A DNA stretch of 64,000 nt from Escherichia coli (GTDB lineage Bacteria > Pseudomonadota > Gammaproteobacteria > Enterobacterales > Enterobacteriaceae). Positions 60,001 through 63,000 of the stretch are shown here, one piece after another. The DNA is taken from NCBI RefSeq assembly GCF_003018255.1, contig NZ_CP027440.1. The stretch is one strand, 5' to 3'. The position numbers were made by a program. Each line of letters starts with the position of its first letter. Position 1 is the first letter of the stretch.

Positions 60001-63000
60001 GCTCAGCGGTTGCGTGAAATAATCCCTGTCTTCCAGCGTTTTACCCAGTGTTTCAGCAAGCTTTGCATAACGGTGTTTTGCCGCCCCCTCAATCTTCTCG
60101 CCAAAATCTTCAATTTTTTTGCCTCTGACGGCACCTTCGCGTACGGAACCTTCCACGTCAGTGGCGGCAACTGTTTCAGATTCAGATGCGCTTGTCTCAG
60201 GCTGCGGGATGTCGCGATTTTCTTCCGCCTGTCGGCGAACTTCTGCCTGCCGGGCGAGTTCAGGCAGTGAGTCACGTACAGTGCGGGGGAGTGATTCAGG
60301 ACGGGGAATACTCACATTACGGGTATTATCAGGCGCCGGAAGTCCTTCACGCACCGGTGCTGTCGCGTTCTGCGCATCCGGTGACGGCAGACCACGACGA
60401 ACAGTGTCACCCTCGAGGGTTTCCCCCTGACGACCAGCGGCGTTTTCCGGTGTCTGCGCGCGTCCTTTCTGGAAACTCTGGCCCTTAACCTCACCGGTTA
60501 TGGTAAAACGACCACCACGTCCGGCCTGATTTTCATCCGGCGTACGTGCCACTTCTCCCGGTAACGGATATCCCTGTCCGGGATGAATATCGCCGGGAGC
60601 GGGCAGGCGTGGACGTTCCGTTAACTCCTGCGCTGTCGGACCGGCATCACCTTCAGCCATCTGTGAACGCACAAGCTCTTCCGGTGTCGGCGCGTTGCCA
60701 CGGGCAAGGCGGGCCTGTACTTCTGTATCATCCCCCGTAAAACCACGGAATCGCGGGTCACGCATGAATGCTGGCTGTTCCATCGGGTCAGCATCAGCAA
60801 TGCGCTCTCCTTCAGCCAGGGTGTTAATGGTTTCCGTTGCCACATCTTCAGAGAACGCCGGATTATCCATTTCAACGGCATACTGGTTCTCGCCTTTCTT
60901 CACTACGGACGGTTTCAGGCCGGTGGCGCTGGCATTGCGGAAAACGTCGCTCCCCATGGCGCTTTTCTCATCCGTGAAATAACGGTTGTCCGGACGCACC
61001 TTTTCAATGCGTTCCGCTGGTCTGGACGCACCATTCCCGTTGATTTCAATGCGAACTTCATCCGGGTCGCGGAACCGCACTGTCGGGTAAATACTCCCGT
61101 TGCCATCCTCCGCATTTTCAGGCTGTGACTGTGCTTCCGGCGTCACTTCCTGTTGTGGCCGAATGACGTCACGTATTGCCTGTAACTGCTGTTCTTCAGC
61201 CTCAGTGAGCCCCTCTTTCTGGCTGAGTCTGCGGTATTCCTCAAGCAGTTCCGGGCGCGGCTTCGCCTTCAGCTCATCCATCACAGCCTGTCGCTTCGCC
61301 TGTTCGTCCAGTTCATTTAATAACTGACTGGCGGCTTCCCGGCGATGAACAGCAGACGCATCTCCCTCCTGAGCCATATCCGCATCAGCATACTGTTCCA
61401 GAAGCTGCTCGCGGTTCATCCCCTGCATGGCTTCACGATGCTGCGCCACCGGATCAACCGGTTCGGGTTGCGGAACAGTTTCGTCCTGCGACACTGTTTC
61501 AGCATCACGCATGGCGGTTTCTTCTGCGGCCTGACGTCTGCCACGATATCCGGCAACCGCGCCAAATGGAGCACCCATCACAGCACCAAGAGTACCACCT
61601 TCGATTGTTGCGTCAGCCACGCCCTCCCAGGGCGACACATCCATTCCGGCAGTCTCACGCAGTGCCATGTTTTCCTGGTAGCGCGAATAGCCACCCTGCG
61701 CCGCATTAATCGCCCCCTGTTCCGTGGCATTTCTGATAATGCCGCTCTTAACGCTCTTCGCCGTGCCCCGCATCGCCAGATTAAGCAACTGAGCATCGCC
61801 CAGTTTTGCCGCCATGGCATTCACAGCCAGCAATTCAGGATCTGTTGCCAGCTGCGCGCGCACCTCATCGGCAACACGCTCTTTTGCCAGATCCATTTTC
61901 TGGCGATCAGTAAGCTGTGCGTGCTGCGGATCGGCGTCAATGGACAAAAACGTCTGCTGAAATTTCGGTGACTGCGCCAGCTCAGAGTAATCCGCATTAA
62001 GAACAGCATCTGCTGCCGCCATTGCACTATGCCCCTGTGCACTGGCTGTGGAATGGGTGATCAGACCCGCCTGGAATAAATCCGGCATTTTTTTATCGAC
62101 AGCTTCTGCTGCCAGTGCGGTAGCTCTTTCCGGCTGCATCCCTGCCGCGATGTATTTTTTCTCCAGCCCGGCGGTCAGCACTTTTCGCAGAGTGACATCA
62201 CCCAGCTTTTTAGTCACACCGCCTGCAACCATATCCGGCACAAGCGCACCAATCAGGTTAACCCCTTTCGCTACCCAGACCGCTGAATCATCATATCCTT
62301 CAGTCATCGGTGTATTCAGCGCCCGCTGCGCCCCCGGCGACATCTTATCGGTCAGCCATTCATCCGATACTTTAGCGCCATCACTGACTGCCTTGCCGGT
62401 TGCCTTCAGACCTTTACCGACAGTATCAGTCACCGCATTCTTACCATCAGGCAGAGTATCGATGACCTCATCAGCCCCCTTGCTGCCACCGGCAAAAATA
62501 TCCTGAACAGTTGCGACACCCGGCAGCCCCATACGGCTGAACTCATTTAAAATACGCGCCCCTGTTTTCACTGGGCTTTGAATCATCGCATCACCGAGTC
62601 CACGGGCCATTTCCCCTGTTCCGCGGACAGACTGGGCGACACCTTTCCCCATAGTTGGTAATACATCGCCCAGGCTGAACGAAGTGCTGTTGTCCTTCCA
62701 GCGATTGGGGTCGGAGAAAAACGCATCATAGCTGTCAGTCTCGCCAGGCTGCTGAATGTTCAGACTGTTGCGGTTCTGGTTACCAAATTGCGCTTCAGGG
62801 CGCTGTTCATCGGAATAAGCCATACTGACTCCATAAAAAAACCCGGCACAATGACCGGGTATCAGGAAATGGTATTAACGGGAAGGGTGAATTACTGCGC
62901 GTAATTCTGTTTCAGACCACGGATAAACTCAGATGCAGAGGCTGCGCTATCATCTCTGGCCTGTTCACTCTTAGCCTTTTGAATACGGAGAAAATTCTCA

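Follow-up and report, generated by a model that had tools for sequence, protein, structure and literature searches.

A short-tailed 933W-like (Sepvirinae) prophage occupies, with its end portion, the last 9.8 kb of the 64,000-nt stretch of Escherichia coli DNA analysed here (contig NZ_CP027440.1, assembly GCF_003018255.1; hereafter the window), and on the minus strand a GC-rich hairpin followed by a run of seven Ts is located in the 68-nt gap between a gene of 421 amino acids (aa), homologous to ORF79 of Sp5 and L0133 of 933W, and a giant gene homologous to Sp5 ORF80, 933W L0134 and Phi24B gp47. Judged from its sequence and conservation, this element is a genuine intrinsic (Rho-independent) terminator signal. 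We consider it probable that it operates within the late operon of the prophage, which is under control of the antiterminator Q, as a site at which unmodified RNA polymerase stops and which Q-modified polymerase bypasses; as such, it looks like a fail-safe barrier rather than a dedicated switch. An earlier note on this DNA had placed an intrinsic terminator between the upstream gene and the ribosome-binding site (RBS) of the giant open reading frame (ORF), and the coordinates, the strand, the hairpin and the T7 tail that it gave are all correct.

The hairpin before the giant gene and its conservation

The layout of the junction is given in Table 1. The stem and loop have dimensions typical of intrinsic terminators (a GC-rich stem of ~5-14 bp and a loop of 3-8 nt), an unbroken U-tract is positioned directly 3′ of the stem, and the element is non-coding and in the sense orientation, 31 nt past the TAA of the upstream gene. 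RNAfold assigns the hairpin an energy of -11.1 kcal/mol, and a consensus scan ranked it first among the terminator-like sites across 54-64 kb. The distance of about 20 nt to the Shine-Dalgarno (SD) sequence given in the earlier note applies to the middle of the hairpin but not to the T-tract, which ends 2 nt before the GGAG. A loose terminator pattern is not enriched in this region (9 found in 54-64 kb versus 10.9 +/- 3.5 expected), and chance was therefore ruled out on other grounds, namely a census of the late genes, covariation within the stem and deep conservation of position. An additional cross-loop pair, C8-G12, is possible within the hairpin and would leave a pseudo-triloop, AUU, and a bulged U. 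In an alternative minimum free energy fold, the SD is weakly paired with codons 4-5 of the giant gene. This SD-sequestering hairpin was rejected as a functional structure, being weak and having one pairing base that differs in the 933W-type sequence.

Table 1. Features at and around the junction, in window coordinates
Feature	Position	Strand	Remarks
Upstream gene, 3′ part	62892..64000	-	421 aa in full; 5′ end beyond the window; ORF79-like
TAA stop of upstream gene	62894-62892	-	
Spacer, stop codon to hairpin	62861..62891	-	31 nt; contains CC-TTAA block (62881-62875)
Terminator hairpin, ACCCGGT-CATTGT-GCCGGGT	62860-62841	-	7 pairs, 5 of them G-C; 6-nt loop
T7 tract (U-tract of terminator)	62841-62835	-	First T can pair with A62860
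SD of giant gene, GGAG	62832-62829	-	2 nt past the T-tract (AT between)
ATG of giant gene	62823-62821	-	5 nt (TCAGT) after GGAG
Giant ORF, 2794 aa	54439..62823	-	8.4-kb gene, last of the late gene run
GC hairpin, GCCCCG-N10-CGGGGC	54409..54430	-	8 nt past the giant ORF stop; no T-run

The 1.7 kb around the site matches 186 phage records in GenBank at 80-94% identity, nearly all from Shiga toxin (Stx)-converting phages, and 424 of 5426 complete E. coli genomes. For the analysis of close relatives, 46 loci were taken from the IMG/VR database in which the upstream gene is present at 74-95% protein identity. The hairpin is kept in all 13 distinct junction sequences of these loci, which fall into three sequence types. 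In an alignment of 11 distinct sequences the 7-pair stem is 100% paired, as compared with 29-43% in controls in which the 3′ partners were slid by 1-3 columns, and two of the pairs have changed on both sides, the pair at the base being A-U, G-U or G-C and pair 6 having changed from G-C to A-U. Independent covariation events are few, and so constitute moderate evidence when taken alone. The T-run is 7-9 nt long in these relatives. A CC-TTAA block (62875-62881, minus strand) is invariant across the three otherwise diverged intergenic sequence types, and TTAAT-like motifs recur 5′ of the hairpin in several more distant relatives; these motifs may be out-of-frame stop codons.

More distant relatives were collected by an alignment-based scan with the N-terminus of the giant protein, which added relatives at 64-68% identity and some twenty loci at 22-28% identity. 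In 68 of 72 loci, a canonical hairpin and T-run end 17-31 nt before the ATG of the giant gene. These canonical loci have 14 distinct hairpin sequences, several of them unrelated, for example AGCCTCGC...GCGGGGCT and AGCCTCA...TGAGGCT; the relatives at 22-28% protein identity have a different stem sequence at the same position. The T-run is mostly 7-8 nt in the distant relatives and 5-6 nt in the L096/L099 group, and all the junctions examined, from close and distant relatives alike, have the GGAG. The terminator directly precedes the giant gene even in genomes whose ORF79 homolog is set apart from that gene by extra ORFs or reverse-strand cassettes, and the sequence 5′ of the hairpin varies between subgroups while the 3′ side is kept. 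RNAalifold applied to the close and distant junctions together was uninformative because MAFFT cannot co-align stems of unrelated sequence, and per-sequence folds were used for the distant junctions instead. Searches of GenBank phages with tblastn for distant relatives returned only the 186 Sepvirinae records and partial matches to Vibrio phages, and the distant lineage was not found in complete E. coli genomes.

Of the four variant loci, L120 has a weaker stem, CCGC-UUCG-GCGG, followed by a T7 tract, and the other three (L113, L115 and L123) have a structured insert of ~125 nt. The insert, located at 2345-2500 in L115, lies between terminators and the SD of the giant gene and contains a long-range stem of ~17 bp (TTAGAAATGAGCCTTTG / CAAAGGTTCATTTCTAA) with a folding energy z-score of -4.3. 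No Rfam family reaches threshold for this sequence, and it is a candidate for a structured leader, a small RNA (sRNA) or a miniature mobile element.

The hairpin also bears on the annotated start of the giant gene. In the GenBank record for 933W, AF125520 (L051 29026-29067; window 62824-62862), the start codon annotated for L0134 is an ATG located at the hairpin's 5′ base, and the 13 additional codons (MPGHCAGFFYGVC) are the hairpin and the T-tract. This upstream start, which would place the terminator within the coding sequence (CDS), was rejected: it has no SD, its codons coincide with the hairpin, and the ATG is replaced by ATA in the window and is absent from the third sequence type (type C). 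As the upstream ATG is not conserved whereas GGAG-N5-ATG is invariant among the close relatives, the downstream ATG is the real start, and the start of the 933W reference gene is corrected here. Phi24B gp47 is annotated with 2811 aa, compared with the 2793-2794 aa form found elsewhere, which suggests the same problem.

Terminators of the late gene run and the Q module

Chromosome NZ_CP027368.1 is 99.3% identical to the window over positions 54234-64000 and served as a proxy (L002, L049) for the prophage sequence that extends past the end of the window. In a strict terminator census of its 28.4-kb co-oriented late gene run, from terminase to the giant gene (L002), six of the nine coding-strand matches fall within the 1044 intergenic nt that make up 3.7% of the run, for which the binomial probability is ~2e-7 by our own arithmetic. 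None of the six opposite-strand matches is intergenic, and block shuffles of the run gave a mean of 2.0 matches. The intergenic sites comprise those that follow the portal gene, the major capsid gene, the gene next after it and lom, the site at 18426, and the one before the giant gene. Four of these junctions have a common compact layout, with a stop codon, short spacer, GC hairpin, T-run, SD and ATG in that order. Counting the hairpin before the giant gene, the late run has at least six coding-strand terminators, and this one, with at least five sisters, is no peculiarity of the giant gene. A distant relative, pieced together by walking along contigs at NCBI, shares both the gene order and the terminator punctuation: tandem terminators sit ahead of its holin gene and one ahead of its giant gene, and others come after the portal, scaffold-like, capsid and following genes.

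An intact Q, pR′ and tR′ module is present in the near-identical copy, ~27 kb upstream of the giant gene. The Q gene has a full-length match to PF06530 (1.5e-51), a pR′-like promoter overlaps its 3′ end, and a tR′-like terminator with 8 pairs is located ~30 nt downstream, an order that mirrors the annotated pR′/qut/terminator of 933W. Q, the giant gene and all annotated genes between them, among which are the lysis, terminase, head and tail genes, share one strand. A Q-family gene with a late promoter and terminator, followed by a co-oriented run that extends to the giant gene, is the organization of a Q-antiterminated lambdoid late operon, and late transcription in Stx phages is known to depend on Q antitermination at pR′/tR′ (PMC7547250). 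This organization supports the proposal in the earlier note that expression of the giant gene from upstream would require read-through or antitermination, and antitermination is the likely means.

In the prophage state, polymerase lacking Q would originate at moron promoters such as that of lom, at spurious promoters, or from transcription reading into the lysogenized prophage. Such polymerase would terminate at the U-tract, 2 nt before the RBS of the giant gene, so that this 8.4-kb gene would stay silent. After induction, Q would load onto polymerase at pR′ and, as Q-loaded polymerase is terminator-resistant, it would read through the terminator before the giant gene and the others within the operon; the giant gene would then be expressed together with the other virion genes. 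We infer termination at the site in vivo, its bypass by polymerase carrying Q, and selection for insulation. The regulated step is the loading of Q at pR′/tR′, as for all late genes, and the hairpin most likely enforces the Q rule and does not set it.

Published expression data for Phi24B are consistent with this explanation. In Phi24B lysogens lom is expressed irrespective of induction and is uncoupled from late control, whereas two clones, CM7 and CM13, that map to an 8.4-kb CDS (49148-57571) are induction-linked, a pattern that surprised the authors, given that this giant CDS sits downstream of lom (PMC3342100). Terminators located between lom and the giant gene would explain why the latter is nevertheless dependent on induction. 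Expression of the Phi24B giant gene does rise on induction (PMC3342100), in agreement with the regulated expression suggested in the earlier note, but the hairpin, as one of at least six such terminators, does not control the giant gene alone. The further suggestion of a promoter within or just after the hairpin is not borne out, as there are only 2 nt between the T-tract and the SD and 11 nt between the T-tract and the ATG, and the consensus scan detected no promoter-like site near the hairpin.

Several observations weigh against termination of unmodified polymerase as the role of this site. The Q module is located outside the window and was observed only in the 99.3%-identical copy, and the distant relatives are without a Pfam-recognized Q, having a DUF6979 gene at its place. 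There is no promoter-like site in the 2.7 kb between the previous terminator and the one before the giant gene, so the transcription to be blocked has no evident source within that interval. Two terminators, after lom and at 18426 in L002, already stand between the lysogen-active promoter and the site, and the insulation contributed by the terminator before the giant gene itself may therefore be small. In the distant relative (L128 6318-8379), genes encoding a CAP12-PCTIR TIR-domain protein, a CHP02642 protein and a 134-aa DUF6979 protein lie between nin-like genes and the holin gene. As the DUF6979 gene occupies the position of Q and is followed by the tandem terminators, it is a candidate for an unrecognized late antiterminator.

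Possible roles in dosage, modular exchange and mRNA stability

Insulation is not the only function that such a terminator might have. It is possible, though unlikely, that the hairpin is an attenuator that sets stoichiometry, with Q-modified polymerase sometimes terminating here and so lowering the amount of giant-protein mRNA relative to that of the upstream genes. Attenuation is compatible with insulation and differs only in which effect is selected. Terminators are also present after the portal and capsid genes and genes near them, whose products could plausibly be needed at different dosages, but lambda Q-modified polymerase reads through terminators efficiently over >20 kb, which counts against attenuation. 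Partial termination is one of the two roles suggested for the intra-operon terminators of phage L (PMC8022706), whereas gp47 is described as abundant in virions in a proteomic study of Phi24B (bioRxiv 10.64898/2026.04.10.717836).

The recurrence of related elements at other junctions raises the question of whether the hairpin is a portable terminator-RBS cassette or recombination linker, a reused module boundary that aids module exchange and for which regulation is secondary. This we regard as improbable, although several observations are consistent with it. In a distant relative, a 50-nt direct repeat with 96% identity (L124 4226-4275 and 12225-12274) contains the terminator AGCCTCACTTTTTAGTGGGGCT and a T7 tract, and each copy is located after a different reverse-strand inserted cassette, one of which encodes a DUF4145 protein, and before a forward late gene; directly after the portal gene (L128 14720-14770) there is a related copy that shares this 5′ flank. 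In the E. coli lineage, the hairpin after the portal gene (ACCCCGTCATCGTACGGGGT) matches the hairpin before the giant gene at 15 of 20 positions, and the divergence between subgroups 5′ of the hairpin, with the 3′ side kept, is also as expected for a cassette. In another phage group, the arrangement CCCGGCCATCGCGCCGGG-T7-ATGGAATAAAT-ATGGCC, a near-identical form of the hairpin-T7-ATGGAR-N5-ATGGC cassette in the window, precedes a G7C-type tailspike gene (Tail_spike_N, Gp63_3rd_G7C and GDSL esterase) and has an unrelated 5′ flank (L150 2846-2885; also L143, L185, L186 and L203). Short GC-rich hairpins can, however, come to look alike by convergence, and reuse as a cassette does not exclude function as a terminator.

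Searches of IMG/VR for the hairpin itself also bear on the cassette reading. A degenerate pattern of ~44 bits, for which we estimate ~0.01 chance matches, matched >120 contigs, ~50 of them with unrelated flanks, and a control with a permuted loop matched none. The stem CCCGGC/GCCGGG followed by a T-run is common in unrelated phage contigs with GC contents of 47-69% (L130-L364). When the loop was left free and the stem and T-run were fixed, ~83% of the 6-nt loops combined a C at position 1 with a G at position 5, and CAYYGY predominated, in a sample taken in database order and hence not uniform. This bias is probably in large part the result of an extra cross-loop C-G pair, giving a pseudo-triloop, which weighs against the cassette reading. 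A sequence-specific loop recognition motif was considered and set aside as not required, since the C1/G5 bias fits an extra base pair. In a broader form of the cassette proposal, the terminator-RBS unit would have marked the 5′ boundary of the giant gene since before Sepvirinae-like phages diverged to ~25% identity, would have been reused at junctions of other virion genes and in other phage groups (G7C-type tailspike genes), and would serve as both an insulator and a landing or recombination site. This form seems to us unlikely; if true, reverse-strand accessory cassettes (DUF4145 and others) enter an otherwise uninterrupted late operon via the terminator-RBS cassette.

A third possibility, that the hairpin is a stabilizer which shields the upstream mRNA from 3′ exonucleases after processing, with termination incidental, is very unlikely. 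The GC hairpin without a T-run after the giant gene indicates that a non-terminating type of hairpin also exists in the operon, but T7-9 is kept in the close relatives and T-runs are also present in the distant ones, and a pure stabilizer would not need a T-run. The hairpin after the giant gene (54409-54430) continues into TGATTAAG; with no T-run, the late operon ends without a canonical intrinsic terminator, and this hairpin is possibly a 3′-end stabilizer or a non-canonical operon end.

A dedicated element, whether a leader of the riboswitch or attenuator type, a promoter within the hairpin or the 3′ end of an sRNA, is extremely improbable even though late regions of prophages in enterohaemorrhagic E. 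coli do encode terminator-ended sRNAs such as StxS and HnrS (PMC7547250; bioRxiv 10.1101/2025.11.27.690950), as there is no Rfam match at E <= 1 in 54-64 kb, the leader between stop codon and hairpin is only 31 nt with no conserved alternative pairing, and there is neither a promoter-like site nearby in the consensus scan nor room for one after the T-tract. HnrS itself, a 66-nt prophage sRNA, was rejected as the identity of the intergenic region, as it maps to Sp9, Sp10 and Sp12 and not to the 933W-like Sp5.

Related systems and neighbouring genes

The element before the giant gene belongs to a known class, the intra-operon terminators of Q-regulated lambdoid late operons, and invokes no new mechanism. 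In phage L and the P22 group, Rho-independent terminators are predicted between virion modules of a single-promoter Q-type late operon, and partial termination or the stopping of non-antiterminated transcription was proposed for those of phage L, with the statement that their ‘roles are not known’ (PMC8022706). Terminators between virion genes in a Q-type-antiterminated operon are thus common to both. In contrast to phage L, the operon described here is that of a short-tailed 933W-like phage of the Stx type, the site lies directly against the RBS of a polyvalent-protein gene of 8.4 kb, and conservation of its position extends to ~25% protein identity, which was not reported for phage L. A terminator before the P22 tailspike gene 9 reportedly stops transcripts from immI/ant, an insert with its own expression, whereas gp23-antiterminated late transcripts pass (Berget, Poteete and Sauer 1983, J Mol Biol). 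Both that terminator and the one described here directly precede a promoter-distal virion gene; unlike P22, the E. coli Stx phages have no independently expressed cassette just upstream, such cassettes being found only in the distant relatives.

In phages lambda and 933W, pR′ is constitutive, transcription terminates at tR′ in lysogens, and Q-modified polymerase ignores the terminators downstream (PMC7547250). The same module, with Q and pR′-like and tR′-like elements, is present in the near-identical copy, but tR′ is a decision point beside the promoter, whereas the hairpin before the giant gene is found ~27 kb further downstream and lacks both a qut site and a promoter. Terminators also flank morons, the independently expressed inserts of late operons (the concept of Juhala et al. 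2000; PMC2629481). The terminator after lom and the terminator-bounded inserts of the distant relatives resemble these, whereas the terminator of the giant-gene junction stands ahead of an essential virion gene and is retained with or without an insert. T4-type phages reportedly carry short promoter-stem-loop (PeSL) regulatory cassettes that recur at module boundaries and for which a part in modular shuffling was proposed (Arbiol et al. 2010). The 50-nt terminator repeat of the distant relative is similar, but no promoter component is shown here, and clear repetition is confined to the distant lineage, that of the E. coli lineage being weak.

The giant ORF encodes a polyvalent virion protein with the Pfam domains LPD5, LPD1, MuF_C and LPD38, whereas no Pfam family was matched by the 421-aa upstream gene. 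In Phi24B the homolog of the giant protein, gp47, forms part of the virion, and its ejection along with the DNA has been proposed (bioRxiv 10.64898/2026.04.10.717836). The giant gene is intact in the window but is annotated as frameshifted, a pseudogene, in NZ_CP027368.1 (L002 21178-29561), which differs from the window by four gaps over 9.8 kb, and the giant gene of L003 is also frameshifted, after 242 aa. In the near-identical copy, outside the window (L049 6300-7100), Q is followed by genes for Ile, Arg and Arg tRNAs and then directly by a nanS-p esterase gene. As no stx is annotated, this copy is apparently a member of the Stx-phage family that lacks the toxin gene.

Both ORF79 and ORF80 of Sp5 are needed for infectious particles, while DNA packaging remains normal in their absence (PMC5155283). 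In L050 389-1684 (from NZ_CP027454.1), and also in H4-H25, which are O121-type Stx2a phages, an IS600 is inserted within the ORF79 homolog and a 330-aa 3′ ORF is left. As Sp5 ORF79 is required, the widespread O121 Stx2a prophages with this IS600 may be unable to yield infectious virions unless the truncated product works. The insertion was also considered as a disruption of the hairpin, which was rejected because it sits within the upstream gene.

The late operon of short-tailed Stx phages, a medically important group, is documented here with at least six conserved terminators. These offer a concrete explanation for the published puzzle of a giant gene that is dependent on induction yet lies downstream of a constitutive lom, and the site beside the 8.4-kb gene, conserved across relatives with ~25% protein identity, provides a good test case for insulation versus dosage control.

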